Assembly (NCBI GenBank): GCA_964469365.1
Contig: CAYXYO010000265.1
Span: forward strand, 1 to 38,775
From: an uncultured Desulfobacterales bacterium
GTDB taxonomy: Bacteria > Desulfobacterota > Dissulfuribacteria > Dissulfuribacterales > QOAL01
DNA: 38,775 nt
Direction of reading: 5' to 3'
Shown: one piece after another, positions 1 through 34,988 of the stretch
Position numbering within the stretch: the first letter of the stretch is position 1
Layout: each line of letters starts with the position of its first letter
Made by a program: the position numbers and the translations under genes
Notes under the pieces: generated by a model
Told to the model about the DNA's origin: nothing
The model's input: only the letters and a program-made list of their open reading frames with translations
Databases searched by the model: none

Positions 1-1033
1 CACGTTCCTGGACAACATAACCTGAGTCATAATCAAGTTCATACACAATTACACCTGTGTTGGCAGCCATGAAAACCAGGACTTCAGAGTCAGCGGCGTC
101 ACTGCCCGCGCTGTCAACCGCGGCATTGGCATATACAGTCACATCCCTAGCGGTTCCGTCAAAGGTGGCGCTTCCCACGGTATTAAAGGCGTCGGCAGTG
201 GAAGTGCCGCCAATATTGGCAAGTGTGATATAACGTATCCAGAGGTTGTCCGGCCCGGCAATGAAGAGATAGTCCCGGGCCGCACTTCCATCCACATTGG
301 CATTTACGGCAGCTACTGAAATGGCTGAAAAGCCTGTGGGAAGTATATCAAAATCCGGCTCTCCATTATCCTTCACAAAGTCGCCGTTCGATTCATCATA
401 ATATATGAGAAAAACAGCCCCGCCCGTGCCATCCTGCCTCTTGGCTGCAACGGCAAGATAGGTGATGTCACTGGCTGCATCGGCTTCGTTTACAATAACA
501 AGGTCAGTTGGCTCATACTGGACACCGGGATCAGCCGGATCATATATCCTTATCCGTTGCGGAGATGCAAGCAGCCCCGCGGTGGAAAGGGTGTATGTGT
601 AGAGGTAGTCGCCTGAAAGGGCATATACCCTGTCATACTCTGTGGATGGCGAGGCGTTCATGTCATCCGCCACCACCCTGGTTACGAACAACTGTTCATC
701 TTCTCCCGTATAGTTGACAGTTGTCTCCCTGTCGAGAAGGCCGTAGGCAGGGGTGCCGCTGTCATAATCAAAGGTCGCCAGCCCTCCGGCCCCCAAGGCA
801 AAAATCAGCTCGGCTCCACCGGCGGCAGTAACGCCCGGAATGCCGTCATACACATAACTCTGAAGGTTGTCATATTCAGGATCGGTTGCTGAAGAGGTTC
901 TGTCCTTGGGTGACTCATAAAGGTCGGACAGGTTGGCCTTGGCAAATACGGTAACAGGCATTGCTGCTGCCAGAACAAGAATGGAAAGCAGCAGGCAGCA
1001 AGCGCTTTTTTTGATTGTGTATATGTTGTTCAT
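1..1033 (-). CDS. Secreted repeat-rich hypothetical protein; C-terminal part lies beyond the window edge (N-terminal 344 codons present)
   Basis: Absent from the ORF track because it runs off the window. Manual reverse-complement translation from ATG 1033 stays open to position 2: MNNIYTIKKSACCLLLSILVLAAAMPVTVFAKANLSDLYESPKDRTSSATDPEYDNLQSYVYDGIPGV... It has a Sec-type signal peptide (KK, hydrophobic core, VFA/KA). SD GGAG lies 8 nt upstream and overlaps the TAG stop of the upstream gene, so the two are probably co-transcribed. The rest is Asp/Tyr/Gly/Ala-rich and beta-strand-like, with no catalytic motif recognised. Confidence 0.7.
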   Translation of the reverse strand, partial: MNNIYTIKKSACCLLLSILVLAAAMPVTVFAKANLSDLYESPKDRTSSATDPEYDNLQSYVYDGIPGVTAAGGAELIFALGAGGLATFDYDSGTPAYGLLDRETTVNYTGEDEQLFVTRVVADDMNASPSTEYDRVYALSGDYLYTYTLSTAGLLASPQRIRIYDPADPGVQYEPTDLVIVNEADAASDITYLAVAAKRQDGTGGAVFLIYYDESNGDFVKDNGEPDFDILPTGFSAISVAAVNANVDGSAARDYLFIAGPDNLWIRYITLANIGGTSTADAFNTVGSATFDGTARDVTVYANAAVDSAGSDAADSEVLVFMAANTGVIVYELDYDSGYVVQER

Positions 1034-1044
1034 TTTTTTTCTCC

Positions 1045-1755
1045 CTATTTTACCACCACGTTTGTAGCTGAAAATTCAGTGCTTTCACCATAGGTTACCG
1101 CCAATGAAACAGGATATGAGCCGGCAGGCATCCCAATGCCGGGGAGCACAAGATATGCCACATCCATGACAGGGTCCACATACCAGGCGCTTACGGCAAT
1201 AAGGCTGCCCAGCACGTCCTGCCCCCCTGCCCGCAGACTTACATCAGTAATCCTTGAAAGATGCGGTATATATAGAAAAAGGTTGGCCACCTGCCCAGGA
1301 TTGCTCCAGATCACCGGATCTTCAGCAGATCCGTAAATGCCCGGCCGTCCGCCGTCAGCGCCATAAAGATCATCCCTGAATGTTGAGCTGTTGGCAGCGA
1401 TCATATAGGGAGCATTGCCTGTTATACGGAATGAAAAATTGATTTCAAGGCGTTTGATATTCCCTGCGGTCACCATGTAGCCAGTGGTTATCATTGCGCC
1501 TTGCACACTGGACTGCGCTATTACCCTGTCAGACGTTTCTGTCTTCACAAAGATAAGCCTGTCTGCCGGGAAGGTCATGGAAAAGCCACCTGCCTTGAGA
1601 TTGTCTTTTCCTGAAACAACCGCATTTAGATAAAGCATGTTCCCGGCGGTTCGAATATCAGTTACATCAAGTGATGTCGCAAAACATATGGCAGCCGAAA
1701 AGCTGGCCCACATTGCCACCAGAAAGCATAGATAAACAGTCTTCCTTAACTTCAT
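1045..1755 (-). CDS. Secreted hypothetical protein; tentative cohesin-like beta-sandwich plus a C-terminal Ig-like segment
   Basis: 236-aa ORF with signal peptide MKLRKTVYLCFLVAMWASFSAAICFA. SD AAGGAG lies 7 nt upstream of ATG 1755. The segment GGFSMTFPADRLIFVKTE resembles the cohesin-type pattern also seen near the N-terminus of the adjacent giant ORF (SGAVDFLYDSRYVSPV). The C-terminal ...GMPAGSYPVSLAVTYGE... resembles FlgD-Ig/Ig-like tails. Domain calls are by eye only. Confidence 0.7.
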   Translation of the reverse strand: MKLRKTVYLCFLVAMWASFSAAICFATSLDVTDIRTAGNMLYLNAVVSGKDNLKAGGFSMTFPADRLIFVKTETSDRVIAQSSVQGAMITTGYMVTAGNIKRLEINFSFRITGNAPYMIAANSSTFRDDLYGADGGRPGIYGSAEDPVIWSNPGQVANLFLYIPHLSRITDVSLRAGGQDVLGSLIAVSAWYVDPVMDVAYLVLPGIGMPAGSYPVSLAVTYGESTEFSATNVVVK

Positions 1756-1863
1756 AACGTTACTCCTTTAATGTTGAGTTGAGATTGTCTGTGGAAAGTT
1801 TACAGATTAACTAAACTGTATCCCTTTCCACTATCTTACAAGCTTGACATATAATTTTTAACT

Positions 1864-1891
1864 TTATCGACCTTCCCGGTCAAAAACTTTA
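1864..1891 (-). promoter_or_regulatory. Sigma-28 (FliA)-type promoter upstream of the 236-aa secreted protein gene
   Basis: The minus strand reads TAAAGTTT-ttgaccgggaag-GTCGATAA, against the enteric sigma-28 consensus TAAAGTTT-N11-GCCGATAA. The -35 matches 8/8 and the -10 matches 7/8. The spacer is 12 nt, one longer than consensus. The site is about 100 nt upstream of ATG 1755. Confidence 0.55.
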
Positions 1892-1938
1892 AAATTGGCC
1901 ATGTTGTCCGGCGTTAAAATATTTAAGGTTGACAACGG

Positions 1939-4900
1939 TCAGCGCCATCCGATCCGGAAGGGTGCATCAGACCTCGCATAGGCGTTATCAGGATCATTGC
2001 TGCCGTTTCCCGGCGCGTTAAAAAAGAGGGATATCATGCCAGCGCCCCCGTAACTGCCTTCAGGAAGGCGTAATAGTCTGTTTGTCATGCCTTTTACAGG
2101 TCTGGCAGGCCATGACCTTAAAAGGGGTGCCAGCTCTTCATCACTTTCATGACAGTATGCGATTTCATAGGTTCCATCCTCCATGACCGTGGCCGGGCAG
2201 TAAAATTTTTTTTCGCTCCCATCTGGCTGATATGTAACAACGAGGTATCCGTCAGTTACCGTATTTTGCCATACGTCCACATCAATATTTACAAAGATTT
2301 CCTGTCCGGGCATGAAGTTTGCGGCACGGCTTCCGTCTGAACGTTGCAGGTCAAGCGACACGGTAAGGCGTCTGCTGTTGCTGACCGCCTGCTGAAACAG
2401 TGAAAATGATGAGAAATCAAACCTGGATGTCCCGCCGGAATCCACAAGGGAGAAGTTGTAAACACCGGCTGGCAGGTCTGCGCGCCAGTAAAGATGACGG
2501 CCATTTTCATCGGAAACGGCCTCCAGCTTCCATGTGCGTCCCGGCGATGTCCAGGCGTACCATGTGCCTGTGCCATCAGGCGTCAGGGCGGCCAGATCCA
2601 GGTCAATATGAATTGACGCGTCGGTATCATCAGGCATGGGGATGGTATAGATGCCGCTGTCTGTCATGGCGAGCATGCATGTCTCATACTGGTCATCCAT
2701 CCTCCGTTTCGCAAATACAATGTCTTCAGGTGGTGACGGCAGGGGATAAAAACCTGTCTGAAGCATGGAGTTGTCTGTAAGTTCCATCACCGATACTCCC
2801 TGTTGCGTCATGACAAAGGCAAATGTGCGGCTGCCTGTCATTGCTATTTTGGGCGTTTTTCCCGAGGCGACTCCATGTTGTGTCTGTCCGCTTACCCACA
2901 CAGACGGGGTGGTGAGGCTGCCGCCGGCTGAACCTCCCGCGCTGCCGGCAGCCCGGTCTCCCTGCAACATGAAAAAGGTTTCGCTTCCAGTGATTTTTGC
3001 CGAATGAAACAGGCCCGCTTCATCTTCCATAAATATGTATTTCCAGTCTGCCGCGCCGCTGCGTGGTATGAAGCCGGTCCTGCTTTTTCCTGTGATTACC
3101 GGCATGTCAGGTGTTGAAGCGTCAATGGACGCCACTTCTCCCTGTTCCGTAAAGGCGAGTATCCCCTTGCCGGAGCCAAGAACCCTGATTGCGGGAAGGT
3201 CAACAGAGGCCTTCAGGGCCGGTGCTGTCATGCCTCTGTCATCCACCAGTGAGTAAAAGAGCAGGCCGGTGGAAGTGGCTGCAACAAGGCGGTTGTGATG
3301 CATCAAAACATCATGCAGGTCTCCGGCAACGGTTATTGTCCCGGCCTCCAGCACTGCGTCACCTGCAAAAGGTTCATATCTGTACAGGGTAATAACAGAA
3401 CGCGATGTTTTGACGGCAATCAGATATGAGGCTGACGACATGGCGCTGCTGCCTTCTTCAAGGGGCATGGAGACCGCTGCCATCATTTCGGAAGATATGT
3501 CGGGCAGGGAGACATAACCCCGCCTTGTCACTGTCATAAGAACCGGATCATAGGAGAAAACCGTAAGTCCGGCGCCGTGTTTCACAATGCCGCGTCCCTC
3601 TTCTGGGAACCAGAATGTCCTGCCTGCGGGTACATTGTCCGGGTTTCCTGCCCTGACAACGGATTTTTCAGGCGTCATTGCGTACAGGGCGTATCTTGTT
3701 TCGCCATTTGTTATGTGCAAAGGCCCCTCGTTTCTTTCCATATAGTTTGTCATGTCAAGGGCCAGGTTCACCGGTCCCGCGGCGTCAAGACCATTAACTG
3801 TCAGCCTGCCGTATGAATCGGTATAAAGGGTTGCCGGCAGGGATGTGGCTGACTTGCTAAGGGGCGTTACCCTTACGGAAACACCCGCAAGGGGTTTGAA
3901 GGTGTCCCCGTTTACCACAAGGGCAAGGAGTTTGCCTGCCCTGAGGGCGTCTTCCGCCTCTCCCCTTACATAATTTCCGGATTCAGGCAGGGTAACCTTC
4001 CAGGCAAAATCGCTTTCCTGCCATACAGTGATTGAAGATATCAGCATATACAGATGGTTATCGCCAGAAATATGCAGGGAATATGCGCCTGGAGTCATGT
4101 CAGTAACAGAAGCCCTGCCGTCCGAACCGGTGTACATGGTGCGTATGTTATGACCGTCCTGATTGCGGACCGTTACCTTGACCCGGTACAGGGGAGTGTT
4201 GTTGACGTCAACCACCTGCAGCAGCACGCGCCCCCTGCCTGAGCTGTTTCCACCCCCCTCCTGCACGGAAGATACCTTGCTTGCCCCTGGAGAGACAAAC
4301 ATGGAAACAGCGCTTTTGACACCGCCCCTGAGATCAAATGAAGCCTCCTGCATCTCTGTCCAGTTTCCCGAAGGGGCCTTCCACCAGGCGGTAACTGTTA
4401 CGGAAGATGCCGGTTCAATCTCCAGTATATCCCATTTACCATTGCTGTCTGTCGCTCCGGAGGCAAGAATCCTGCCCGTCTTGTCATAAATGGCAACCTG
4501 GAGATCCGGAACAACCTGTCCGGTGGAGGCGTTTACAACCGACAAGGCAAAGGCGGCCTTGAGGTCAGGCTGTGGAACCGTTCCGCCTGAACATGCCTCG
4601 CTGACAGGCCGGAAGATTACCGGCACCACATGGAGGCCGACATCAAAAATATAGGTTGTTCCGATTCCCAAAAGCGTGTCAAATTCAACCCCCTGCCTGC
4701 CGTCGGCAAGGACGGTCACATGGTAAATGCCGGGAAAATCATGCGTAAATTCCGCTACTCCATATTCATCTGTCTGCAGGTTGAACACCCTGTTGTCACC
4801 AGTGGAAAGTATCTTCACCCTGGCGTCATTAACCGGGTGACCGCTGTTGTCCATGACAATGAAACGGCCCTGGGTCAAAAGCGGATGGGAGCCGGGCGAG

Positions 4901-7293
4901 GTCTTCAGGGAAAGGGAGGTGCTGTCAGGCACAAAATAGAACGTATATTTCGTAAGATATCCTTCCCTGGCGGCCACTGGTGAAAAGATATTCACTTCGT
5001 CCCATGCGACAGTGGCATTGTCTGACTCCACACTTCTTGAAACATGCACATCAAAGGGCGACTCTGACAGATCCACGTTTTTGAACATTATTTTGCCGCT
5101 GTTGTCCAGAATGCCTGAGTAGAGGGTGTTACCGCTGGCCTTGCCCACAAATTTCACGGCAAGTCCGGGAATGGCCATGGCAGTGGAGGGGTTTTTAACC
5201 GTAATTTCAATGGCGGGGCAGGTGGAGTTGTTGTCTCCGCCGTCATCTCCCCCTCCGATGTCATGATACTCTGTTATGGCTGAAAGGGTCTTCCCCATCT
5301 TTACGTATCGCGTAAGCCTTGCCCCGGCAGTCAGCACAGCCTCTATTTTCACACCCTGATATCCTGAGCGGCTGAGCACAGCTTCCACATCTCCGGGCAG
5401 CAGTTCTTCAGCCACTGCCTTGCCGTTTCCGTCTGTGAGCAGAGGCCCTCTGGTCAATCCTGACTGTTTCAGGATGACAGAGACGCCCGCAAGGGGTTTG
5501 TCAGACAGGTCGGTAACATGAAATTCCATGGAAGGACGTGCTGAAGGATCAACAGAACCGCTGTCAGAGAGCTGTTCCAGGGAGGCGTAAAGCCCCGCAA
5601 ACGGGAGACGAAGGGGTACTACCCTGCCATCCGCCACGTCGGAACCAGGCACGTCCAGCTCCTGACCGGCATACCATGTCGTGTTGTCCGGGCCGGATTT
5701 TTCAGGGGTATTTACAATAAGATTACAGGATGAATCCGGAGACACAGGGGAAAATTCCGCATTGCCTGAGCTGTCAGTAACCCGTTTTATCACATTGAAA
5801 GCATCCTGAAGCGTGGCTGAAAGACCGGGCACCGCCTTGTAGGAATCCAGCGGGTCAAGGGCTTCAAGCCTGATGGCAGTGGCTGAAGTGGGATTTACAA
5901 CGATTGTAAGCTCTTCATTCGTGGAAGAAAATTTTACAGGTCCCTCGAGTTCTGAAAAAAGTTCTCCGTTCCCGGCATGCCAGTAGAGGTCAACGCCGCG
6001 CCTTACCCTGTCAACATAACAGCAACCGTCTTCCCCGGTAACACATTCATAGGAGCCCCGGATCTCGCGCACATCTGCGCCCGGAACCTCGTCTCCGGCG
6101 GCAGAGCCCCTGTGAACGCATATCTTTACTGAAGAGTATTCATAAACCTGGTCAGATGGGGGAATCAGGGAGAGGATTGGCAGGGTGACGGCAACGGTTT
6201 CATCCTTGGGAACCTGAACAGTAACGGAGTATCCGTCATAAAATTCCTTCCTGGCCTCTACCCTGTAAGTCCCTTCCTCAAGGCCGTCAAATACGCAAAG
6301 ACCATCCGCGCCGGTAAAGCATGATGTGATGATGCGATCTCCTGACCAGAGTATTACCCGTGCGCCGGATACCGGTTCAGACGAGGTTGATTCCACAACC
6401 CTTGCGTCTATCTCCCCAAAGACAGTAACAATCACATCTTCCCTGACACCAAAGACCGTCCATTTGCCTGACGCGTTTCCTGCCGAGTCAAGCACAAAGC
6501 CCCAGAGCGCATGGATGCCCGGCTCAAATTCAACTGTCTCCTCAATGCCCGTGGCGATCAGCGGATCGGATAACGGTTCGGATATGGCAAAGGGGTCCGC
6601 CCAGTAAACTTCCCCTGTGTTATTGCCTGAAAGCTCTATGGAGGCCTTCAGAAGTATGGAGGTTTCTTCATACCTCTTTTCATTTTCAGGTGACTCGATG
6701 GTGATGCCAGGCAATATGCCGCCCCTGTCAAACAGTATAATGCCGCCGCCTTGACGGTAGAGGGCAAGATCTGCCATGGATGGAGTGTTTTTTATGACCT
6801 GTAACAGGGTTAGGCCGTAAGCTGGCAAACTGTCCAGTTGAAAATGGAAGATTGCAAGCTCTTCCACCCCAACTGATGATACAGGTGTCTGAAAGGCAAA
6901 AGAAAAACGTATTGTCCTCAGATATGGCCTGGTCTCATCAAAAAGTTCATCCAGGCGGGCGGCTGCAAAAAAGAATGGATTGCCGCGGCTGGCCAGGGCT
7001 CCCCTGTCAACCTTTATCAGGTTGCCGTTAATGAAGACAGGAGAGACATAACGGCTGTCATAGAGAAAATCCACTGCCCCTGACTGAAGCCGTTCCCCTT
7101 TAAGAAGCATGGGAACGGCGGTTTCGCCGCCTGCCTGGCCTGAAACAGGGGCCATGAAAAAAAGGTCTGTTCTTGCTTCGGCTGCGACCGCGAAACAGGT
7201 GAATAATGCCATGAAAAAAAAGAAGAGGGCAGGCAGGCAGGGCCTGCCCCTGCTTTTTTTTGATATTCCTGTGAAAAGGGCTGAGGTCTTCAT
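1939..7293 (-). CDS. Giant secreted/surface protein (1,784 aa): cohesin-like N-terminal domain, multiple carboxypeptidase-regulatory-like (prealbumin-fold) repeats, beta-propeller-like C-terminal half
   Basis: Uninterrupted 5,355-nt ORF. Signal peptide: KKSRGRP + LPALFFFFMALFTCFAVAAEA/RT. Repeated modules of the type P(L/V)xGxxVxL...TDxxGxxxFxxLxPGxYxV occur, e.g. VSGARVILWSGDRIITSCFTGADGLCVFDGLEEGTYRVEARKEFY; KPLAGVSVILKQSGLTRGPLLTDGNGKAV; PVNDARVKILSTGDNRVFNLQTDEYGVAEFTHDFPGIYHVTV; YRVKVTVRNQDGHNIRTMYTGSDGRASVTDMTPGAYSLHI; KPLAGVSVRVTPLSKS...TDSYGRLTV. The start lies 17 nt downstream of the flgE stop on the same strand. Confidence 0.85.
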   Translation of the reverse strand: MKTSALFTGISKKSRGRPCLPALFFFFMALFTCFAVAAEARTDLFFMAPVSGQAGGETAVPMLLKGERLQSGAVDFLYDSRYVSPVFINGNLIKVDRGALASRGNPFFFAAARLDELFDETRPYLRTIRFSFAFQTPVSSVGVEELAIFHFQLDSLPAYGLTLLQVIKNTPSMADLALYRQGGGIILFDRGGILPGITIESPENEKRYEETSILLKASIELSGNNTGEVYWADPFAISEPLSDPLIATGIEETVEFEPGIHALWGFVLDSAGNASGKWTVFGVREDVIVTVFGEIDARVVESTSSEPVSGARVILWSGDRIITSCFTGADGLCVFDGLEEGTYRVEARKEFYDGYSVTVQVPKDETVAVTLPILSLIPPSDQVYEYSSVKICVHRGSAAGDEVPGADVREIRGSYECVTGEDGCCYVDRVRRGVDLYWHAGNGELFSELEGPVKFSSTNEELTIVVNPTSATAIRLEALDPLDSYKAVPGLSATLQDAFNVIKRVTDSSGNAEFSPVSPDSSCNLIVNTPEKSGPDNTTWYAGQELDVPGSDVADGRVVPLRLPFAGLYASLEQLSDSGSVDPSARPSMEFHVTDLSDKPLAGVSVILKQSGLTRGPLLTDGNGKAVAEELLPGDVEAVLSRSGYQGVKIEAVLTAGARLTRYVKMGKTLSAITEYHDIGGGDDGGDNNSTCPAIEITVKNPSTAMAIPGLAVKFVGKASGNTLYSGILDNSGKIMFKNVDLSESPFDVHVSRSVESDNATVAWDEVNIFSPVAAREGYLTKYTFYFVPDSTSLSLKTSPGSHPLLTQGRFIVMDNSGHPVNDARVKILSTGDNRVFNLQTDEYGVAEFTHDFPGIYHVTVLADGRQGVEFDTLLGIGTTYIFDVGLHVVPVIFRPVSEACSGGTVPQPDLKAAFALSVVNASTGQVVPDLQVAIYDKTGRILASGATDSNGKWDILEIEPASSVTVTAWWKAPSGNWTEMQEASFDLRGGVKSAVSMFVSPGASKVSSVQEGGGNSSGRGRVLLQVVDVNNTPLYRVKVTVRNQDGHNIRTMYTGSDGRASVTDMTPGAYSLHISGDNHLYMLISSITVWQESDFAWKVTLPESGNYVRGEAEDALRAGKLLALVVNGDTFKPLAGVSVRVTPLSKSATSLPATLYTDSYGRLTVNGLDAAGPVNLALDMTNYMERNEGPLHITNGETRYALYAMTPEKSVVRAGNPDNVPAGRTFWFPEEGRGIVKHGAGLTVFSYDPVLMTVTRRGYVSLPDISSEMMAAVSMPLEEGSSAMSSASYLIAVKTSRSVITLYRYEPFAGDAVLEAGTITVAGDLHDVLMHHNRLVAATSTGLLFYSLVDDRGMTAPALKASVDLPAIRVLGSGKGILAFTEQGEVASIDASTPDMPVITGKSRTGFIPRSGAADWKYIFMEDEAGLFHSAKITGSETFFMLQGDRAAGSAGGSAGGSLTTPSVWVSGQTQHGVASGKTPKIAMTGSRTFAFVMTQQGVSVMELTDNSMLQTGFYPLPSPPEDIVFAKRRMDDQYETCMLAMTDSGIYTIPMPDDTDASIHIDLDLAALTPDGTGTWYAWTSPGRTWKLEAVSDENGRHLYWRADLPAGVYNFSLVDSGGTSRFDFSSFSLFQQAVSNSRRLTVSLDLQRSDGSRAANFMPGQEIFVNIDVDVWQNTVTDGYLVVTYQPDGSEKKFYCPATVMEDGTYEIAYCHESDEELAPLLRSWPARPVKGMTNRLLRLPEGSYGGAGMISLFFNAPGNGSNDPDNAYARSDAPFRIGWR

Positions 7294-7310
7294 GGCATTA
7301 TCCGTTATTC

Positions 7311-8810
7311 TTATCTCTTCATCTGAAGCAGTTCGTTCATCATGTCATCAGTGGTTGTAATTACCCTGGAATTTGCCTGGAAGGCCCGCTGGGTGGTTAT
7401 GAGTTTTACAAACTCTGTTCCCATGTCCACTGTTGACTGCTCAAGTGCGTTTGATGCTATGGAGCCAAGGCCGTTGCTCCTTGGAGGCCCGGTGATGGGC
7501 GCTCCTGAGGCGGTGGTCTCCTTGAAAAGGGTGCCGCCCGCCTTTGAAAGGTCTGTGGCGCTGTTGAACCGGGCAAGGGATACCTGGGCAAGGGAGATAA
7601 TACGTCCGTTGGAATAGCTCCCGGACATTATGCCTTCGGAATCCACGTTAATGCTTTCAAGGAAACCGGCTCCAAAACCGTTCTGGTCATAGAAGAGGGT
7701 GCTTGAACGGTTGGCGTACTGGGTGGTGCTTATGGCCTCGGTGTTCCATCCTGTTACAGTGGGAGGGGTGGTGGTGCGGTCAACCGTGGCATTTGAACCA
7801 AGGTTGAATTCAATAATCTGTGCCGACTGGTCCTGGCCGGTTGTTGTGTCGATTGTTCCGGTTGGCGGCATGAAAAAGGCCACAAGCTGCGGGTAGTTGT
7901 GATCTCCGTATGTGGCGCTTTCCCATACGCCGCCGTTGAATCTCTCAATGGGGGATGTGGGATCTCCCGCAGTTCCGTATATGGAGTCTATCTGTCCCTG
8001 TGGAGTGAAACGTATATATCCGCGCATGAGCATGCCGGCGCTGTCAGTGCCTGCCGCGGCGCTCATGTCCTCCGAAGGATCAACGGCAACAAGGAATTCC
8101 CACTCACGTTCATTGGTGGTGCGGTCAAAGTAGATGCTAAGTTCATGTGTGTTGCCAAGGCTGTCATATACAGACAGGGTTGACTTGTATTCATAATGGA
8201 CATTTGGTGTAAGGGTGCCTGCCGCCTTGCCTGATGATGATGTCCAGTCATCCCACAATGTGGATGAGCTTACAGGGCCGGTCAGACGGCTGTCCAGGTT
8301 GACCGCGACTGTAGTCTGGTCAGTGGCCACAGGAGGGGAGGAGTTTGAGAGCTGTACGTCCCCAATGGCTCCAACTATTTCAGCAGAGCCGTCAGGCTGG
8401 GTCTCCATGGCCCATCCCTGGACCCTGAGACCCGAGGGATTTACAAGATATCCGTACTGGTCTATGTGGAACTGGCCTGACCTTGTAAAATACTGGCTGT
8501 TTTCTATGTTGGGGTCTGTGACAATAAAGAAACCGTTGCCTGCTATGGCAAGGTCTGTGGGAGATGTGGTACTCTCAAAAGAACCCTGGGTAAAAAGCGG
8601 CGCCACATCTGACATGGCTGAGCCTCGTCCTATCTGGGAACCTGTCCTGGCAGTGTTGACAGACTGGGACATGATATCCTGAAAGGTCGCCCTTGCCCCC
8701 TTGAATCCATTGGTATTGGTATTGGATATGTTGTCGCCTATTACCTGCATGGCGATTCCCTGGTTCACCAGTCCGCTTACTCCTGAGTAAAGTGCGCTTG
8801 AAAGTCCCAT
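7311..8810 (-). CDS. flgE: Flagellar hook protein FlgE
   Basis: The N-terminus MGLSSALYSGVSGLVNQGIAMQVIGDNISNTNTNGFKG and C-terminus ALEQSTVDMGTEFVKLITTQRAFQANSRVITTTDDMMNELLQM are the conserved flagellar axial-protein terminal segments typical of FlgE. 499 aa. SD AAGGAG lies upstream. Confidence 0.95.
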   Translation of the reverse strand: MGLSSALYSGVSGLVNQGIAMQVIGDNISNTNTNGFKGARATFQDIMSQSVNTARTGSQIGRGSAMSDVAPLFTQGSFESTTSPTDLAIAGNGFFIVTDPNIENSQYFTRSGQFHIDQYGYLVNPSGLRVQGWAMETQPDGSAEIVGAIGDVQLSNSSPPVATDQTTVAVNLDSRLTGPVSSSTLWDDWTSSSGKAAGTLTPNVHYEYKSTLSVYDSLGNTHELSIYFDRTTNEREWEFLVAVDPSEDMSAAAGTDSAGMLMRGYIRFTPQGQIDSIYGTAGDPTSPIERFNGGVWESATYGDHNYPQLVAFFMPPTGTIDTTTGQDQSAQIIEFNLGSNATVDRTTTPPTVTGWNTEAISTTQYANRSSTLFYDQNGFGAGFLESINVDSEGIMSGSYSNGRIISLAQVSLARFNSATDLSKAGGTLFKETTASGAPITGPPRSNGLGSIASNALEQSTVDMGTEFVKLITTQRAFQANSRVITTTDDMMNELLQMKR

Positions 8811-8889
8811 ATTTTTCTCCTTTTCCAGAGTGTAGTGTTTGTTTTATTTGTTTAAAGAGTTGTTGCCCTGACAGAGTCAAACCTGTCAT

Positions 8890-9573
8890 TTAATCTTCAA
8901 CCATCCATACCTGTGCAATCGTGATGCCAGGTCCGTTATCTATTGCGAGTTCAGGCAGGCCGTCATCCCTGTAGGTTACTCCTGAGACTACGCCTGTTGT
9001 CCACAGGGTTGCCTTAAGGTCTTCTCCATTGTCATTAACAGCCCTGACATACACGGTATAATCTCCGGGAGGCACAGTGTCGCCATTCATGTCCGTGCCG
9101 TCCCAGTCCAGGCTGCTGCGACCGGCGGCAAGAAAACCTTTGTCCCATGAGGCAACCACATTGCCGTCACTATCCTTTATTGTGACATTACATTCGGCTG
9201 CCGCCTCATCCAGGCCGATGGAGAGTTTTTCAGGCCCTTCTTCTGTAACAGGCAGGTTGTTGCCCTCGTAACGCACCTTGTGACCGATCATGGAAACAGC
9301 GCTCATGGAAGTACGGGAGTTCTCTGCCTTTACCATATCCTCCATGGCGTCATTGTTCTTGTACATCAGGTCAACCATGTTGAACTGGGCAACCTGTGAA
9401 GCCATCTCCGCGCTTTCCATGGGGGCCATTGGATCCTGATACTGGAGCTGGGTTACAAAGAGTTTCATAAAATCATCCTTGTCAAGTGTGCCGTGTTCAG
9501 CGGCGGTCTCGTACCTGATCTCTTTCCCGCCAGGGGCCTGAAATATGTTGTTTTCAACTGAAGCGATAGCCAT
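8890..9573 (-). CDS. flgD: Flagellar hook assembly/capping protein FlgD
   Basis: Contains the FlgD N-terminal motif DDFMKLFVTQLQYQDPMAPMESAEMASQVAQFNMV. It also has an Ig-like domain: VTIKDSDGNVVASWDKG...LDWDGTDMNGDTVPPGDYTVYVRAVNDNGE. It sits between fliK and flgE. Confidence 0.95.
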   Translation of the reverse strand: MAIASVENNIFQAPGGKEIRYETAAEHGTLDKDDFMKLFVTQLQYQDPMAPMESAEMASQVAQFNMVDLMYKNNDAMEDMVKAENSRTSMSAVSMIGHKVRYEGNNLPVTEEGPEKLSIGLDEAAAECNVTIKDSDGNVVASWDKGFLAAGRSSLDWDGTDMNGDTVPPGDYTVYVRAVNDNGEDLKATLWTTGVVSGVTYRDDGLPELAIDNGPGITIAQVWMVED

Positions 9574-9601
9574 GACTTTTCCTTCCTGTTATATCAAGTT
9601 G

Positions 9602-11836
9602 TTACATTACCCTGTAAACCCCGGATTCCTGGACGGAATCCATGCCAAGGGCAGGGTTGTCGGGAATGTGCTCCTCATCATTCGCCATTACTGTCTCCCT
9701 GCCATGAAAAGCGCCGAAGCCCTGTTGTCCATGCCGACCGGCAAAAGTTTCCTGCTGTCCCACATCAACATTCGCGCTGCCAAGGGCATATCCGCTGTCT
9801 GCAAGATGGCCTCTCAAGGTGTCCAGGCCGGCATGGATGAGCTGTCTTGTGTCAGGATTGTCAGTGACAAAGACCGCTTTTATTTCATTGCCGCCATAGA
9901 CGGAAATACGAATTTTCACGCTGCCGAGCTCAGGCGGGTTAAGGTGAAGCACCGCCCTGGATCTGTTCATGCGGACAGCCTCTGTAATGCCCTGTTCAAG
10001 CTGACCGGCAACCCTGACGGCCTCCTCATCTCTTTTCATGTGTGTGTCAGCAGGTGGCGTATTGTTGCCGCGTATGGCCGCAGGCGTCTCTGCCGACCTG
10101 TTCTGTGCCGTGCGCTCAGCCCCGTCCATGACCCGGGTATCTGCAAGGCCGACCTCTTTGGGCCCTTTGTCTGAATGCTGCCCATGGAGATTGTTATCCA
10201 TGGATGCGGCGGTTTTCCCCGGCGTGACAGAAGAAACCATGATGGAGTCGTCAGGCATGTCGGACACGGAATCACCCCCTCCATGCCGGCTGTCAGAAAG
10301 GGTCACCATATCCCGGGCCGGGCCGGCGTCGCCTGACCGTTCCAGTGTTGATGAACGCGCCTTGCCATCTTCTGCTGGTATAGACATTGTCTGTGTATCT
10401 GGTTTGATTTCTGCTGCACTTGCATTGCTGCCAATTTTTTCTGGGGCAGCCATTTCAGCCACCACGTCAAGCTGTTCCAGATGTTCGAACTTCTCCAGCC
10501 CGGTACGTTGTCCAGAGGGATTGTCCGGCGCAATGTCTCTGTCTGTGTGGCCTGTAACGAGGGTTTTTGCCATGCCCTTTTCTGAAACAGCCTCTGCACG
10601 CAATCCCCCGGGTTCACTGTTTTTCATGCCGGGCAGGGCGCTGTCTTCAGACAGGGCAGGCATGTCCGTTGATTTGAAGTAAACGTCGCTTTCCGCTGAT
10701 TCCGTATTGACTGTATGTTTTTCAGCGTTTTTCCCGGTTGTATTAACGTCCTGGTAACTGTTGTCGCCTGAAGCGCCTGGCACCGTCTTTCTGGTCATGT
10801 TGCCGGATGACTGCGTTACAGGCCCTTCTGGCTGAAGACCTTGCAAAACAGAGACGCTGTTTTTCCCTTTTGCCGATGTCGGGAAAACAAGTGGCTGTTG
10901 GGGGACAAGCTGTTCATGTCCGGCTTCTGGCATTAGTGAAGCTGATTCCTCAGCGAGTTGGCGAGACAATGCTTCCAGGATGTTGTTATTGCGTTTTTTC
11001 CCCGAAAGTTCCTTTTTTTCAGGCTGAAAGTCAATGGCCCCGGCTTGTTTGCCCGTTGCCTTTGAATTGGCTGGAAACATCCCGGTTGAAATGGCCTGGC
11101 TGGAGTTTTCCCTGCCTGTATTCACATCACTGCCCTCTCCCTGGTTCAGGAGATGTGAAAATTCGCCATGTAACAACCTCGCAAGCTCTTCCTTCATGGA
11201 TATTGCGGGCCATCCGGACAGGCCTTCTTTTTGAGTATGAACGTCCGGCTTGTCCGGGGTTTCTGTTGTGTTTGCCCTCTTTTCATTCTCAGGGAGAGGG
11301 AGAAGATGGGAAGAGGTTTCCGGCAAGGCTGTTTTTTGCGTCTTTTCACCGGGAGCGCCGCTGTCTGACAGGAAATTGCCAGCCAACAGGTTCAGAACAG
11401 TTCCCGCAATTTTCTCCTGCTGTTCAGGGCGGTCAAAAACGGTTTTGAGATCATCCACCATCTGTTGAACAAGATTTTCACTGCTATCACCACCGGGGAT
11501 GTCCATGTTCTCCCGGATGGGATTTCCTGATAACAGGTCGATAAGGAACTGCATAAGTGACCGCCCCTCTTCAGGGGAGAGGGAACTTGCTGAAAATTGT
11601 TCCGCAAGCTCCCGGGGCAGCAGGCCTGATATTATCTCTGTCCCTTGCCGGGGGCCCCCTTCTGTTTTTTGCTCTGCCTTGTGGATATCCTGTCCGGGAA
11701 CAGCAATGGCGCCCAGCAGTTTTTCGAGAAAGGAGTCTCCGCCTTGCCCGGCATTTTTTTCCCCTGGAAAACCGCCAGTTGCTGTTTCAGCAGGTGAAAA
11801 ACTGCCTATGTTGGTTAAAAAAGGCATGAATGTCAT
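9602..11836 (-). CDS. fliK: Flagellar hook-length control protein FliK (long form, about 744 aa)
   Basis: The C-terminal Flg_hook-type domain reads AVLHLNPPELGSVKIRISVYGGNEIKAVFVTDNPDTRQLIHAGLDTLRGHLADSGYALGSANVDVGQQ. The central region is long, low-complexity and Pro/Ser/Glu/Gly-rich. The ORF track starts at TTG 11857. I prefer ATG 11836 (MTFMPFL...), which has SD ACGGAG 6 nt upstream. Confidence 0.85.
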   Translation of the reverse strand: MTFMPFLTNIGSFSPAETATGGFPGEKNAGQGGDSFLEKLLGAIAVPGQDIHKAEQKTEGGPRQGTEIISGLLPRELAEQFSASSLSPEEGRSLMQFLIDLLSGNPIRENMDIPGGDSSENLVQQMVDDLKTVFDRPEQQEKIAGTVLNLLAGNFLSDSGAPGEKTQKTALPETSSHLLPLPENEKRANTTETPDKPDVHTQKEGLSGWPAISMKEELARLLHGEFSHLLNQGEGSDVNTGRENSSQAISTGMFPANSKATGKQAGAIDFQPEKKELSGKKRNNNILEALSRQLAEESASLMPEAGHEQLVPQQPLVFPTSAKGKNSVSVLQGLQPEGPVTQSSGNMTRKTVPGASGDNSYQDVNTTGKNAEKHTVNTESAESDVYFKSTDMPALSEDSALPGMKNSEPGGLRAEAVSEKGMAKTLVTGHTDRDIAPDNPSGQRTGLEKFEHLEQLDVVAEMAAPEKIGSNASAAEIKPDTQTMSIPAEDGKARSSTLERSGDAGPARDMVTLSDSRHGGGDSVSDMPDDSIMVSSVTPGKTAASMDNNLHGQHSDKGPKEVGLADTRVMDGAERTAQNRSAETPAAIRGNNTPPADTHMKRDEEAVRVAGQLEQGITEAVRMNRSRAVLHLNPPELGSVKIRISVYGGNEIKAVFVTDNPDTRQLIHAGLDTLRGHLADSGYALGSANVDVGQQETFAGRHGQQGFGAFHGRETVMANDEEHIPDNPALGMDSVQESGVYRVM

Positions 11837-11988
11837 GGTTTGCTCCGTTTGTTTCAACAGGTGGTTGATAAAAAAATATCATACAAAAACAATATGTTAT
11901 CGTGTGGCTTGCAGGTGTTCCAAATTCATGAAGAGAAGATGTGTCGCCATCTGGATAACTTATGCGTATTTTCCTTTGCGCTTACATG

Positions 11989-12004
11989 GTGCAAGCTCCA
12001 TGCC
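11989..12004 (-). promoter_or_regulatory. Sigma-54 (-24/-12) promoter for the fliK-flgD-flgE operon
   Basis: The minus strand reads AGGCATGGAGCTTGCA, against consensus TGGCACG-N4-TTGCW. GG-N10-GC spacing is exact, and GGCA and TTGCA are conserved. The site is about 150 nt upstream of the fliK ATG. Confidence 0.55.
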
Positions 12005-12247
12005 TTGGTATTTTTGTGGTGGTGAAAAGGGAGTTGTAATGGGGTGTTTTGTTGTGTGAGTCTGCCGTCCTGTTTATTGTTGGCTGTAAAAATAAAGGAG
12101 AGAGGTTCTCTGCCATATTTTGTGGAAAGCCGGCCCCGTTCTCCATTTTATTTCATACAATTCCTTGATTTTTCCCATGAGACGGAATAAATAGTCTATT
12201 TTGAATAGCCTGATAAATAAAATTATATTCAGTCTGCTGTTATCGAG

Positions 12248-12275
12248 TTTACAAACCGGTTCTGAATGATAAGAT
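12248..12275 (+). promoter_or_regulatory. Candidate sigma-70 promoter for the epimerase/GT4 operon
   Basis: TTTACA-N16-TAAGAT sits in the AT-rich intergenic region, about 140 nt upstream of ATG 12418. Eye-matched only. Confidence 0.3.
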
Positions 12276-12417
12276 AATATTTATACTGTTTGATAACATT
12301 TGCGTATGCGAGTGATGAGGATAATATCTGTGCATTGTTTATATGGAGACTCCGGCAACAACTGACAGTTGAATCAGTGGAAATACGAAGGAACAATTCT
12401 TCCGGGAGAGAATATTA

Positions 12418-13386
12418 ATGAATATTTTATGCACTGGAGGGGCCGGTTTTATAGGTTCCCACCTCTGCGACTACCTGATAGAAAGAGGCGACCGGATCGC
12501 TGTAATTGATGATCTTTCAACAGGCAGCCTCGACAATATAGCGCACCATCAGGCCAATCCGGCCTTTGAATATGTGAATGACACCATCCTGAACGAGAAG
12601 ATCATGGAAAGGCTGGTGGAAGGATGTGACGCAATAATACATCTCGCCGCGGCGGTAGGCGTGAAGCATGTTATCAAGAATCCCCTCTCTTCCATAGAAA
12701 CCAATATCCTCGGAACCGAGATTGTTCTGCGTCTTGCCAACAGGTACAGAAAAAAGGTCCTTATAGCTTCCACGTCAGAGGTTTATGGAAAGCACATGCA
12801 CTCCCCCCTCAAGGAGGATGACAACATAATATATGGCCCTCCAAGCACCATGCGTTGGAGTTACGCCGCTGCAAAACTCCTGGATGAATTTACCGCCCTG
12901 GCATACCATCGCACCAAGAAACTGGATGCTGTCATCTTTCGCTGCTTCAACACCATCGGCCCGCGTCAGACAGGGTTGTACGGCATGGTGGTTCCAAGAT
13001 TCATTCAGCAGGCCCTTCGTGATGAGCCTCTGTCAGTATATGGCGACGGCAGCCAGACAAGGACATTCACCTATGTGGGGGATGTGGTGGAAGCCATTGT
13101 CCGTCTCCTGGATTGCGGCACCTGCGCCGGAGAAGTGGTGAACATCGGCGGAGATGAAGAGATTTCCATCATGGAGCTTGCCGAAAAGATAAGGGAAAAG
13201 ACCGGCAGCAGTTCTGAAATCAGGCTTATACCATATGAAGACGCCTATGGCCGGGATTTCGAGGATATGATGCGGCGGGTTCCCTCCCTTGAAAAACTCC
13301 GCTCCATGATAGATTTTGTTCCAAGCACCAAACTTGATGAGATACTTGATATTACAATAGAATACTTCCGTTCAAGGTCAGTCTGA
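12418..13386 (+). CDS. NAD-dependent nucleotide-sugar epimerase/dehydratase (extended SDR family)
   Basis: Rossmann motif ILCTGGAGFIGSHLCDYL; STSEVYG; catalytic YAAAK; GDGSQTRTFTYVGDVV. These are typical of UDP-sugar epimerase/decarboxylase-like enzymes. Exact substrate cannot be assigned. Confidence 0.85.
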   Translation: MNILCTGGAGFIGSHLCDYLIERGDRIAVIDDLSTGSLDNIAHHQANPAFEYVNDTILNEKIMERLVEGCDAIIHLAAAVGVKHVIKNPLSSIETNILGTEIVLRLANRYRKKVLIASTSEVYGKHMHSPLKEDDNIIYGPPSTMRWSYAAAKLLDEFTALAYHRTKKLDAVIFRCFNTIGPRQTGLYGMVVPRFIQQALRDEPLSVYGDGSQTRTFTYVGDVVEAIVRLLDCGTCAGEVVNIGGDEEISIMELAEKIREKTGSSSEIRLIPYEDAYGRDFEDMMRRVPSLEKLRSMIDFVPSTKLDEILDITIEYFRSRSV

Positions 13387-15325: not shown

Positions 15326-16752
15326 CAGATAGAAAATTCAATAAAACAGAGATAAAAAAGCTGGCCAAACAAGTTGTGGCGGAAAAAAAGGGCGCATGGG
15401 AACAATGCCGGGCCTCTGAAAAGAAGGAAATTTTCAAATATGCGGAACATTACATGGCCTTTCTCTCCATGGTCAAGACAGAAAGGGAGGCCGTGGATTT
15501 TATCAGGAAGGAGGCCATGTCAAGGCGTTTCCGGGAACCCGGCAAGGGAGGATCGAAAAAACTCTTCTGGTCGTTCAGGGGAAAAAGCGCCGCCCTTGCG
15601 GTAACCGGGGCCAGGCCGGTGTCAGAGGGCATAAGGATAGTGGCCTCGCACATAGACGCGCCGCGCCTTGACCTCAAGCCCAATCCCCTTTACGAGGATA
15701 TGGAAATGGCCTTTCTGAAGACCCATTACTACGGTGGAATCAAAAAATTCCAGTGGCTCTGCCGTCCCCTGGCGATACACGGTCTTTTTATCAAAGGAGA
15801 TGGCGAGGAACTCAACCTTGTTATGGGAGAAGATGAAAGTGGGCCGGTTTTCACCATCAACGACCTGCTTCCACACCTGGCAGGCAAGGTTCAGGCAACA
15901 AAAAAGCTGCGTGAGGCCATACCCGGTGAAAAACTCAACCTGCTTGTGGGCGGCATCCCCATAAACGGTCCCGTGGGGACAAAGGAAAAAATCAAGCTCT
16001 CCATACTTGAGTTGCTTAACAGGAAATATGGCTTGACAGAACATGATTTCACATGCGCTGAGATAGAGATTGTCCCTGCCGGCAGGGCAAGGGAGATCGG
16101 TTTTGACAGGGCGTTTGTCGGGGGCTACGGTCAGGATGACAGGTCTTGCGCCTATGCTTCATTAAAGGCCCTTTTTGAAACAGTGTCTCCTGAATATACC
16201 TGCGTGGCCCTGTTCCTGGACAAGGAGGAGACAGGCAGCGACGGCAATACAGGCGCTAAATCAAGGTTCATTGAAAAGATAATATTTGACCTTGTGAGGA
16301 ACGAAGGGACAGAGCTCAGGCCGGACTCCCTCACAAACATATTTTTTAACAGCCTTGCCATTTCCGCTGATGTCACCGCAGGCATGGACCCTGACTATAT
16401 GGATGTCCATGAAAAAAACAATGACGCCATGATAGGCCACGGCATATCACTTTCCAAATATACCGGATCAGGGGGCAAATACTCTGCCAATGACGCAAAC
16501 GCCGAATATCTGAGCTGGATAAGACAGGTGTGGAACAGGGCTGGTGTCGCTTGGCAGGCAGGGGAGATGGGAAAGGTTGATGAGGGCGGAGGAGGCACCA
16601 TTGCCAAGCATCTTGCCGCCCACGGCATGGAGGTGGTGGATGCCGGAACGCCCCTTTTAAGCATGCATTCCCCCTTTGAGATTGCCCACAAGGCAGACCT
16701 TTACATGACATTCAGGGCATATCACGCCTTTTTTTCAGCGCATGGAGAATGA
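15322..16752 (+). CDS. M18-family aminopeptidase (aminopeptidase 1 / aspartyl aminopeptidase-like)
   Basis: Motifs: RIVASHIDAPRLDLKPNPLYED, LKTHYYGGIKKFQW, DKEETGSDGNTGAKS, SMHSPFE. The ATGA start overlaps the stop of the upstream gene. Confidence 0.85.
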   Translation: MTDRKFNKTEIKKLAKQVVAEKKGAWEQCRASEKKEIFKYAEHYMAFLSMVKTEREAVDFIRKEAMSRRFREPGKGGSKKLFWSFRGKSAALAVTGARPVSEGIRIVASHIDAPRLDLKPNPLYEDMEMAFLKTHYYGGIKKFQWLCRPLAIHGLFIKGDGEELNLVMGEDESGPVFTINDLLPHLAGKVQATKKLREAIPGEKLNLLVGGIPINGPVGTKEKIKLSILELLNRKYGLTEHDFTCAEIEIVPAGRAREIGFDRAFVGGYGQDDRSCAYASLKALFETVSPEYTCVALFLDKEETGSDGNTGAKSRFIEKIIFDLVRNEGTELRPDSLTNIFFNSLAISADVTAGMDPDYMDVHEKNNDAMIGHGISLSKYTGSGGKYSANDANAEYLSWIRQVWNRAGVAWQAGEMGKVDEGGGGTIAKHLAAHGMEVVDAGTPLLSMHSPFEIAHKADLYMTFRAYHAFFSAHGE

Positions 16753-16815: not shown

Positions 16816-17793
16816 ATGAAAATAAGAAAACCCGACTTTGTCATCCTGGACGATTTTTTCAGGAACGGCAGACTGCTGGAGCAGATAGAGAGGTGCGGCA
16901 GGGTCTGTTACAAAAGCGAGGACAAGATAACAGAGGAATCCGCAGGACCCTTTATCAGGGGTATTGTGAAACGCGGACATGAGTCTGTCCTGGAGATGGC
17001 GCAGATTGTCTGCAGGGCGGAAAGCCCGAACCCGGAACATTTTGCCTCGTTTTTCGAGCAGATACCCAGGTTTTGCCAGGCAGACAGGACAGGGCCCCAT
17101 GAGTTCCTCATATCAGGAAATCCACGTTCATTCCGTGACCTTGCAAAACGTCTGCCCGACCTTCCCCTGGTTCGGGCCATGATCGCACCGATGGCGGAAA
17201 GGTGGCCTGTGCTCTTCCAGGAGTTCGCAAGCGCCGGGAAGCCTGCCGGTGGAGCGTCCCCGGGGGAAATCGCGGTCTCCATCCTTTCTCCCGGGGAAAC
17301 AGACTCGTTGCCCGTCAACCTGCTGCGGAAACACCGTGCGCTTCTGATACATATTACTGTAAACAGGGCGGTAACCCATGAACTTGTGCGGCACAGGGTA
17401 GCGTCCTATCTGCAGGAATCCCAGCGTTACTGCCGTTACGGTGAAGACCGTTTCGGCGGTGAGGTGGCCTTTATAAAACCGTGTTTTTTTGAGGAAGGCA
17501 CGGAAGAATATGAGAAATGGAAAAGGGCCATGGAGGAGACGGAAAGGCTCTATCTTGAGCTGCTGAAGACCAGTTCCCCACAGGCGGCCCGCACGGTTCT
17601 TCCAACCTCATGCAAGCCGGAAATAATGGCGCACGCCACACTTGAGGAGTGGGAGCACATATTCCGTCTCAGGGCCTCTGCCGCGGCGGACCCTTCCATG
17701 AGAGAGATAATGAAGATGATTCTGCCTGCCTGCGCGGCAAAGTTTCCAGCCATATTTTCCGAACTGGCTGAACAGGCCAACCCTGAACAATGA
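16816..17793 (+). CDS. thyX: FAD-dependent thymidylate synthase ThyX
   Basis: ThyX signature THELVRHRVASYLQESQRY (RHRxxSxxxxSxRY). N-terminal CGRVCYKSE...KRGHESVLEMA. At 325 aa it is longer than many ThyX proteins. Confidence 0.9.
   Translation: MKIRKPDFVILDDFFRNGRLLEQIERCGRVCYKSEDKITEESAGPFIRGIVKRGHESVLEMAQIVCRAESPNPEHFASFFEQIPRFCQADRTGPHEFLISGNPRSFRDLAKRLPDLPLVRAMIAPMAERWPVLFQEFASAGKPAGGASPGEIAVSILSPGETDSLPVNLLRKHRALLIHITVNRAVTHELVRHRVASYLQESQRYCRYGEDRFGGEVAFIKPCFFEEGTEEYEKWKRAMEETERLYLELLKTSSPQAARTVLPTSCKPEIMAHATLEEWEHIFRLRASAAADPSMREIMKMILPACAAKFPAIFSELAEQANPEQ

Positions 17794-32320: not shown

Positions 32321-34988
<2,668 letters not shown>

Follow-up and report, generated by a model that had tools for sequence, protein, structure and literature searches.

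A predicted cohesin/dockerin surface module behind the flagellar hook operon of an uncultured Desulfobacterales bacterium

Flagellar regulons carry a few passenger genes. In Campylobacter jejuni, the flagellar co-expressed determinants (Fed) are non-structural genes that are controlled by flagellar sigma factors and are expressed only in flagellated cells, and further colonization factors that depend on sigma-28 or sigma-54 belong to the same kind. Fed proteins are small, and some of them exit through the flagellar export apparatus. In addition, Sec-dependent, lineage-specific parts of the flagellar motor are known in Vibrio and Campylobacter. Here we describe a locus of an uncultured Desulfobacterales bacterium in which the flagellar hook operon fliK-flgD-flgE is followed by the genes for a giant secreted protein of 1,784 amino acids (aa) and for two partner proteins of 236 aa and 1,145 aa. 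The DNA analyzed, called the window throughout, comprises 38,775 nucleotides (nt; GenBank assembly GCA_964469365.1, contig CAYXYO010000265.1, positions 1 to 38,775), and all features are on its reverse (-) strand unless (+) is given. With a probability of roughly 0.55, the 7.3 kb that follow flgE represent a rare, clade-specific cohesin/dockerin cell-surface module, which is under flagellar transcriptional control at two levels. We know of no description of a cohesin-dockerin multi-gene surface assembly that is tied to both flagellar tiers, i.e., by fusion of one gene to the flgE operon and by a FliA promoter.

The nearest regulatory analogue is the Fed group of Campylobacter. However, the proteins encoded here are very large, Sec-dependent multidomain cohesin/dockerin proteins, and one of the genes is fused to the hook operon by a junction that resembles a coupling or attenuation element. 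The Sec-dependent motor accessories, namely FlgP/FlgQ of the basal disk, FlgT/FlgO of the H-ring, PflA/PflB, and MotX/MotY, are likewise Sec-exported, restricted to certain lineages, and co-regulated with flagellar genes, and it was this analogy that the original prediction had drawn. In contrast, the proteins of the module share no sequence or domain similarity with them, are 5-10 times larger, and contain adhesin-type domains, and the module is missing from a sister clade with closely similar hook genes.

With respect to its domains, the locus resembles cohesin-dockerin assemblies, i.e., cellulosomes and the cohesin/dockerin proteins that have been reported from syntrophic sulfate reducers, among them Dissulfuribacterales relatives, and interpreted as putative adhesins (PMC10553843). 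Non-cellulosomal cohesin/dockerin adhesins have also been proposed for anaerobic methanotrophic (ANME) archaea, and a flagellar link is not mentioned in that article (zero occurrences of "flagell"; PMC10553843). The likeness consists of a predicted cohesin fold at the N-terminus of the giant, of a Pfam Cohesin domain together with two F-hand motifs in the third (1,145-aa) protein, and of the same broad host group, the Desulfobacterota including metagenome-assembled genomes (MAGs) of the Dissulfuribacterales. The differences are that enzymes and carbohydrate-binding modules are lacking here and that the host is diderm. The giant is also reminiscent of giant repeat adhesins with prealbumin/Ig-like rods, such as SdrD-type B repeats or SpaA-like domains, which likewise combine a rod of tandem beta-sandwiches with a distal domain of a ligand-binding type, here a predicted propeller. 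However, the giant has no LPXTG, type I secretion system (T1SS), or autotransporter signal, and its attachment would use the cohesin module.

The association of the giant with the flagellum is documented by gene order. Ten full-length homologs (32-65% identity) and a 1,430-aa variant were found among 5.8 billion clusters. The original prediction had asked whether a giant open reading frame (ORF) always follows flgE in related genomes, and this is indeed the case: all homologs with visible upstream DNA, i.e., 19 of 19 loci including the window, have fliK-flgD-flgE in front of the giant on the same strand. The 18 further loci are L001-L004, L006, L007, L009-L014, L016-L019, L021, and L028, and in L013 and L014 it is the divergent 1,430-aa form that follows flgE. 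The hosts are MAGs assigned to the Desulfobulbaceae, to Desulfobulbus-like bacteria, to the Dissulfuribacterales, and to the "Deltaproteobacteria". Across these loci FlgE is 75-92% identical versus 32-65% for the giant, therefore the giant evolves much faster than FlgE. The flanks differ between clades. Epimerase and glycosyltransferase genes, riboflavin genes, or entirely other genes (L011, L012) are located upstream of fliK, and the giant is followed by the genes for the 236-aa/1,145-aa pair, by a gene for a 504-aa membrane protein, or by convergent type II secretion system (T2SS)/pseudopilin genes. The flgE-giant junction is unbroken across about a dozen lineages, while both outer junctions of the block were broken several times.

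A scan of metagenomes for FlgE revealed the giant in six of six loci that combine a FlgE identity of 75% or more with 1 kb or more of DNA downstream. In the sister loci, whose FlgE is 60-73% identical, it is missing in all cases (12 of 12), and flgE is the last gene of the operon, followed by convergent genes or directly by secDF (L020, L029, L030). In L002 the whole module, comprising genes for the giant, a 241-aa protein, a 1,171-aa protein, and two TIG-domain proteins, sits between flgE and secDF. Therefore, the module looks as if it had been inserted once, in an ancestor, behind the last gene of the hook operon and had been retained there since. Such an insertion-like pattern, with flgE followed by secDF or convergent genes in the sister clade, would also be expected if the link to the flagellum were only historical, i.e., if a surface-protein island had entered between flgE and secDF in one ancestor and were insulated by terminators and transcribed from promoters of its own. 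We regard this as quite unlikely, and one point that disfavors it is that the outer junctions of the block were repeatedly broken, but the flgE-giant junction never was.

The hook operon itself is unambiguous. It consists of fliK for hook-length control (9602-11857, 751 aa, TTG start as listed; Pfam Flg_hook, 67.7 bits), flgD for hook cap/assembly (8890-9573, 227 aa; Pfam FlgD, FlgD_ig, and FlgD_tudor as well as NCBIfam FlgD models), and flgE for the hook protein (7311-8810, 499 aa; Pfam FlgE_D2, Flg_bbr_C, D1, and Flg_bb_rod; NCBIfam FlgE subfamily, 301 bits). The three genes are colinear on one strand, their Pfam and NCBIfam scores exceed the cut-offs, and their order is the same in the 18 other loci. 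About 600 N-terminal residues of FliK are of low complexity and show little conservation; an alignment with relatives is possible only for the C-terminal Flg_hook domain. For the prediction of sigma-54 promoters a GG-N10-GC element close to TGGCAC-N5-TTGCW was searched for upstream of the first gene and at orthologous positions. The promoter originally predicted at about 11990 was recovered by the motif scan as the -24/-12 element AGGCATGGAGCTTGCA (11990-12005; two mismatches to the consensus), and elements at the same position upstream of fliK are present in L001, L009, L010, L011, and L012 (zero to two mismatches, three of the five being perfect TGGCAC-N5-TTGCT). A conserved sigma-54 promoter ahead of fliK is thus a supported prediction. 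A further candidate element, TGGCATCACGATTGCA, is located in the 3' end of flgD (8914-8929; one mismatch; about 104 nt before the flgE ATG). L003 and L009 contain a perfect element at -72, and none was found in the other clades. The element within flgD may represent an extra promoter for flgE and the giant.

The stop codon of flgE (TAA, 7313-7311) and the ATG of the giant (7293) are separated by 17 nt on the same strand. This spacing was already part of the original prediction, and a scan of ORFs and their translations reproduced it together with the ORFs, their strand, and their coordinates. The prediction had also seen no hairpin or T-run between the two codons. This is true for the 17-nt spacer, which contains neither a hairpin nor a promoter motif, but not for the first codons of the giant. 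An element that resembles an intrinsic terminator, with an A-run, a GC-rich stem, and a U-tract of 8, is located at 7214-7262, inside codons ~11-27. Its stem GGGGCAGGC/GCCUGCCCU (7250-7226, codons 15-26) is followed by CUUCUUUUUUUU, which contains the U-tract (7225-7214). This hairpin, 43-80 nt inside the ORF, has an energy of -24.3 kcal/mol (z = -3.9) and was ranked as the best terminator-like site within positions 1-12600. It occurs once in the window and is absent from L001; this inner terminator is window-specific. A repetitive REP- or MITE-like element was considered as an explanation for the hairpin and was rejected due to its uniqueness in the window; it also belongs to no Rfam family.

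The terminator-like hairpin is surrounded by a perfect 13-nt inverted repeat (7301-7289 and 7215-7203), which pairs the region of the Shine-Dalgarno (SD) sequence and the ATG with codons 27-31. The 5' arm of the resulting long-range stem (7289-7303) begins 8 nt past the flgE stop codon and covers the weak SD sequence and the start codon of the giant, and the 3' arm (7203-7217) includes an in-frame ATG (7212, Met28). The minimum free energy fold of the 136-nt junction has -47.1 kcal/mol (z = -4.3), and none of 200 shuffled sequences was equally stable. In a comparison with L001, the nearest relative (giant 65% identical), the 15 pairs of the outer stem show one compensatory and four one-sided changes, and no pair is broken. 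A stem 8 nt after a stop codon, a sequestered start codon, and a terminator in early codons would fit translational coupling combined with attenuation. Met28 was considered as an alternative start of the giant and discarded, as the signal would then be only 13 aa long and would have no charged n-region. The start is also placed at the ATG at 7293 because a long n-region (MK..ALTG..KS..R) with an SD sequence at the same distance is found in L001 as well.

The flgE-giant gap has a length of 17-30 nt in the window, L001, L013, and L014, which represent two separate clades, and of about 60-660 nt elsewhere. A hairpin or a clear terminator is present in the majority of the longer gaps. In clade D a strong GAAGGAG site follows within about 30 nt after the hairpin, leaving no space for a promoter. 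A sigma-54 or sigma-28 promoter directly upstream of the giant that is consistent across the loci was not found; isolated weak matches are confined to L002, L009, and L011. The short gaps, the start-sequestering stem conserved in L001, and the lack of a consistent promoter before the giant would fit co-transcription of the giant with flgE and translational coupling. The original proposal of read-through from the sigma-54 promoter may apply to the giant. A sigma-28-like motif in the 3' end of flgE of L006, L011, and L012 was dismissed as a promoter candidate, because it coincides with the codons of a conserved "APIT" and its wobble positions are not conserved in the window, L001, and other loci. 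In some relatives the spacer has been enlarged by repeats. Examples are L011, with tandem copies of the unit "cattccgagcgaagcgaagcaccaacgtcctgt" at ~9700-9900, and L009, in which a duplicated segment at 9386-9736 gives rise to a 116-aa ORF with a 55-aa counterpart in L003 (3485-3652).

The second predicted level of control concerns the partner genes. As a sigma-28 (FliA) promoter we accepted matches to TAAA-N15/16-GCCGATAA that are located in non-coding DNA upstream of a gene and are conserved among orthologs. The AT-rich gap of 183 nt between the genes for the giant and the 236-aa protein contains the element TAAAGTTT-N12-GTCGATAA (1864-1891), 108 nt before the ATG of the 236-aa gene. With one mismatch, it is the sole site with at most one mismatch in the window (shuffle P = 0.002 within the gap). 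The corresponding gap of L004 has the perfect sequence TAAAGTTA-N12-GCCGATAA, without a second perfect match in the 1.1 Mb of DNA retrieved, and the gaps of L002 (TGAA-N16-GTCGATAA) and L016 (TCAA-N16-GTCGATAA) have two mismatches each. In the Dissulfuribacterales MAG KC_016, to which both L010 and L093 belong, a 247-aa/1,135-aa pair (L093) is encoded on another contig than flgE and the giant, and the gap before this unlinked pair also contains a motif with two mismatches (TAAG-N15-GTCGATAA). For seven orthologous gaps, shuffling gap by gap led to a combined Fisher P of 2e-7, with loci that are not fully independent. As a positive control, the identical scan recovered sigma-28 sites ahead of flgE and of flagellin genes from other lineages. 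No such promoter is present in L013 and L014, where the partner pair follows 19-43 nt after the giant.

The 236-aa and 1,145-aa genes are thus predicted to have their own sigma-28-type promoter and to belong to the late flagellar tier, and this predicted promoter is a second, independent tie of the module to the flagellar regulon. Because of this promoter the distal genes would not be simple read-through products. The original view of one transcript that simply extends from the hook operon through all three genes is consequently unlikely, also in light of the hairpin inside the giant gene and the terminators in relatives. The sigma-28 motif on partner genes that are located elsewhere in the genome would be hard to explain by a merely historical link without flagellar regulation. 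Between the sigma-28-like promoter and the gene for the 236-aa homolog, mini-ORFs with strong SD sequences are present in L001 (MKKVV*, ~15440-15460) and in L016 (MKKSHSRFPP*, ~9225-9260), which may encode leader peptides; the window has no clear equivalent. In L093 (14938-23324) the unlinked pair adjoins a convergent chemotaxis cluster with genes for a methyl-accepting chemotaxis protein, CheW, CheA, CheR, CheB, and CheY, and a gene for a 318-aa coiled-coil protein is located directly downstream of the pair.

The giant (1939-7293, 1,784 aa) was characterized by Pfam searches, repeat mapping, AlphaFold2 modeling, and Foldseek comparison. By sequence inspection a signal peptide was assigned to aa 1-40 (7293-7174). 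It is followed by a cohesin-fold and immunoglobulin-like domains (aa 41-292, 7173-6418), by nine CarboxypepD_reg/prealbumin-like beta-sandwich repeats (aa 293-1180, 6417-3754), and by a C-terminal region predicted to consist of a beta-propeller and a beta-sandwich (aa 1205-1784, 3681-1942). The model of aa 41-292 has a mean confidence (pLDDT) of 90, and the top as well as the dominant Foldseek matches are cohesin modules with TM-scores of 0.6-0.72. The criteria for a cohesin module were a nine-stranded jelly-roll fold and membership in Pfam PF00963, and they were applied to aa 41-~195. Conservation within the giant is highest in the N-terminal domain, which carries an invariant KGERLQxG motif. 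The repeats match SdrD_B, SpaA, and CarboxypepD_reg of Pfam at the level of the fold, and the C-terminal model (pLDDT 67) retrieved only generic beta-propellers with Foldseek. Profile searches against PDB sequences with the N-terminal and the C-terminal domain gave nothing significant.

The bacterial alpha-2-macroglobulins offer another framework for a protein of this size. In that case the giant would be a periplasmic protease trap or an envelope-spanning scaffold without a role in adhesion, in line with its 1,784 aa, its weak MG3/MG4 matches, and its Sec signal without a recognized signal for outer-membrane export. However, the MG matches reflect generic beta-sandwiches and are overlapped by much stronger CarboxypepD_reg matches, a thioester/A2M domain and a lipobox cysteine are lacking, and cohesin/dockerin partners are not features of that family. 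An identity as an alpha-2-macroglobulin was therefore discarded, and this whole group of functions is highly improbable.

The gene for the 236-aa protein (1045-1755) has a strong SD sequence (AAGGAG), and its product has no known domain, i.e., no match in Pfam, NCBIfam, or, by profile search, PDB sequences. Its family comprises 11 representative clusters among 1.84 billion proteins, beyond which no relatives are detectable, and orthologs follow the giant in L002, L004, L013, L014, L019, and L095. Homology of this protein to the cohesin-like domain of the giant was not found with hhalign. The third gene starts 11 nt after the 236-aa gene with a GGGAG SD sequence and runs off the window. The predicted signal-peptide gene at 1-1033 on the same strand does exist, but what the window contains is only the N-terminal 344 aa of a larger protein. 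Its full length of 1,145 aa was obtained from contig L095, which is 99.4% identical to positions 1-5991 of the window, and the cohesin and dockerin domains, which lie outside the window, were read from this contig.

In the third protein the signal peptide is followed by an LVIVD-like propeller region, a PKD domain (Pfam, 28.6 bits), a cohesin domain (aa ~951-1065; Pfam, 38.7 bits, cut-off 24.1), and a predicted C-terminal dockerin (aa ~1080-1145). The dockerin scores 16.7-22 bits in Pfam, just under the cut-off of 22.9, and has two clear F-hand loops (GDVDGSG...D and GDVNNDG...D), which are conserved in four orthologs. Within the modules, dockerin motifs are confined to the family of the third protein. 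Relatives add two TIG-domain proteins to the module. As originally predicted, all three downstream proteins have Sec-type N-termini with a positive n-region, a hydrophobic core, and an AxA-like site, as read directly from the sequences, and 10-12 homologs of the giant retain its cleavage context A-x-A|RTD(L/I)FF. The statement that none of the three resembles a flagellar protein was likewise borne out: there was no match to a flagellar family in Pfam or NCBIfam, and models of FlgH, FlgI, FlgA, FlgP, FlgT, PflA/B, and MotX/Y gave no match at E-values up to 0.1.

These features lead to the following model of a flagellum-controlled surface module. The giant gene would be fused to the 3' end of the sigma-54-dependent hook operon, and its product would be made from the flgE transcript. 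Ribosomes that complete FlgE would open the stem that locks the weak ribosome-binding site and the ATG of the giant, while the embedded hairpin with its U8 tract would end transcripts that are not under translation, and coupling and attenuation would jointly hold the giant far below FlgE in amount. After Sec-dependent export the giant would expose an N-terminal cohesin fold, a rod of nine beta-sandwich repeats of ~35-40 nm, and a distal propeller. The 236-aa and 1,145-aa proteins, plus the TIG-domain proteins in relatives, would be produced late from the FliA promoter, after completion of the hook-basal body, and the dockerin of the 1,145-aa protein would plug into the N-terminal cohesin of the giant, into the cohesin of another copy, or both. 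The outcome would be an extracellular scaffold or adhesin that is specific for flagellated, swimming cells and serves the attachment to particles or partner cells.

Several observations weigh against this model. Two of the orthologous gaps have only weak sigma-28 matches with three mismatches (L019, TCAA-N16-GTCGATAT; L001, TAAAGTTT-N11-TCCGATCT), and the partner genes of clades D and E lie apart from the giant. The cohesin-fold domain of the giant has no match in Pfam or among PDB sequences, and the fold is supported by the predicted structure alone. A signal for outer-membrane export or anchoring was not seen, neither of T1SS, type V (T5SS), or type IX (T9SS) secretion systems nor a PEP-CTERM or a lipobox, and the proteins of the module could be periplasmic. 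In clade D, convergent pseudopilin and GspF/GspE-like genes of the type II secretion/type IV pilus kind follow the giant (L010 10584-14547, L011 15680-20958, L012 15795-21109; identities judged by N-terminal sequences only), and they are a possible export route for the giant.

Furthermore, the giant could be insulated from transcription of the hook operon by the terminator-like hairpin in the window and by the hairpins or terminators after flgE in most relatives. A clear terminator in L003 is followed by about 100 nt up to the ATG of the giant, which makes a separate, unrecognized promoter probable in that lineage. Terminator-like hairpins between flgE and the giant, or just inside the latter, in most lineages and gaps of 80-660 nt with space for a promoter at many loci are also what an inserted island with its own promoters would show. 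Against this stand the promoter-less gaps of 17-30 nt in two separate clades and the coupling-type stem of the window. Taken together, the unbroken junction and the sigma-28 motif on the unlinked pair make a neighborhood without regulatory link unlikely.

A different function would be possible under the same regulation, i.e., the giant and its partners could be structural accessories of the flagellum. They might surround the hook or basal body as a lineage-specific collar, cage, disk, or sheath-like structure, or they might decorate the hook or the filament, and their production would follow the order of flagellar parts, with the giant at the stage of the hook and the partners at that of the filament. 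The split between sigma-54 (middle) and sigma-28 (late) control parallels that of true flagellar structural genes, the flgE-giant adjacency was never broken in about a dozen lineages despite rearrangements of the outer flanks, the high conservation of the N-terminal domain of the giant would be expected for a fixed docking partner, and the motor parts of Vibrio and Campylobacter mentioned above set a precedent. Nevertheless, we consider such an accessory unlikely. There is no similarity to FlgP, FlgT, FlgO, FlgQ, PflA, PflB, MotX, MotY, or any flagellar family, the giant diverges far faster than FlgE, and the sister clade with very similar hook genes indicates that the module is dispensable for a working flagellum of this type. 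In addition, it is in extracellular adhesins and scaffolds that cohesin, dockerin, PKD, TIG, and LVIVD-propeller domains typically occur. Of the two functions originally proposed, the predicted domain content including the prealbumin-like repeats favors the motility-coupled adhesin or scaffold, rather than a part of a ring, disk, or sheath. A collar or anchor of cohesin and dockerin modules at the hook or the flagellar base, whose assembly would keep pace with that of the hook (sigma-54) and of the filament (sigma-28), is rather doubtful; if it existed, it would be the first case of a flagellar accessory made up of cellulosome-type modules.

The rest of the window contains housekeeping genes and a lone flgI gene for the P-ring (30209-31366), with a sigma-54-like sequence TGGCCTCTCTTTTGCT about 68 nt upstream (31449-31434). 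The position of flgI among housekeeping genes indicates that flagellar genes are scattered in the host genome, and a gene for a P-ring suggests that the flagellum is external and the cell diderm. The genes selA for selenocysteine synthase (28185-29612), a gene for a GGGtGRT-family protein (32321-33316 (+)), and thyX (16816-17793 (+)) are consistent with the genome of an anaerobic member of the Desulfobacterota. Genes for tRNAs and Rfam families were not found in the whole window. A literature search for flgE together with Desulfobulbaceae retrieved nothing relevant.

The comparison with related loci supports the flagellar association of the module more strongly than the sequence of the window alone allowed, and a putative function in attachment is deduced from the encoded domains. 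All protein families of the module are tiny and none is annotated, with about a dozen clusters for the giant among 5.8 billion and 11 for the 236-aa protein among 1.84 billion. The flgE-giant junction is a compact candidate for translation-gated attenuation, which would create a very large difference in stoichiometry between genes of the same operon. If the model is true, it would provide a regulatory context for the cohesin/dockerin "adhesins" of the sulfate-reducing partners of methanotrophic archaea. It would also represent a mechanism that couples swimming to the attachment to particles or syntrophic partners in uncultured sulfur-cycling Desulfobulbia and Dissulfuribacteria.

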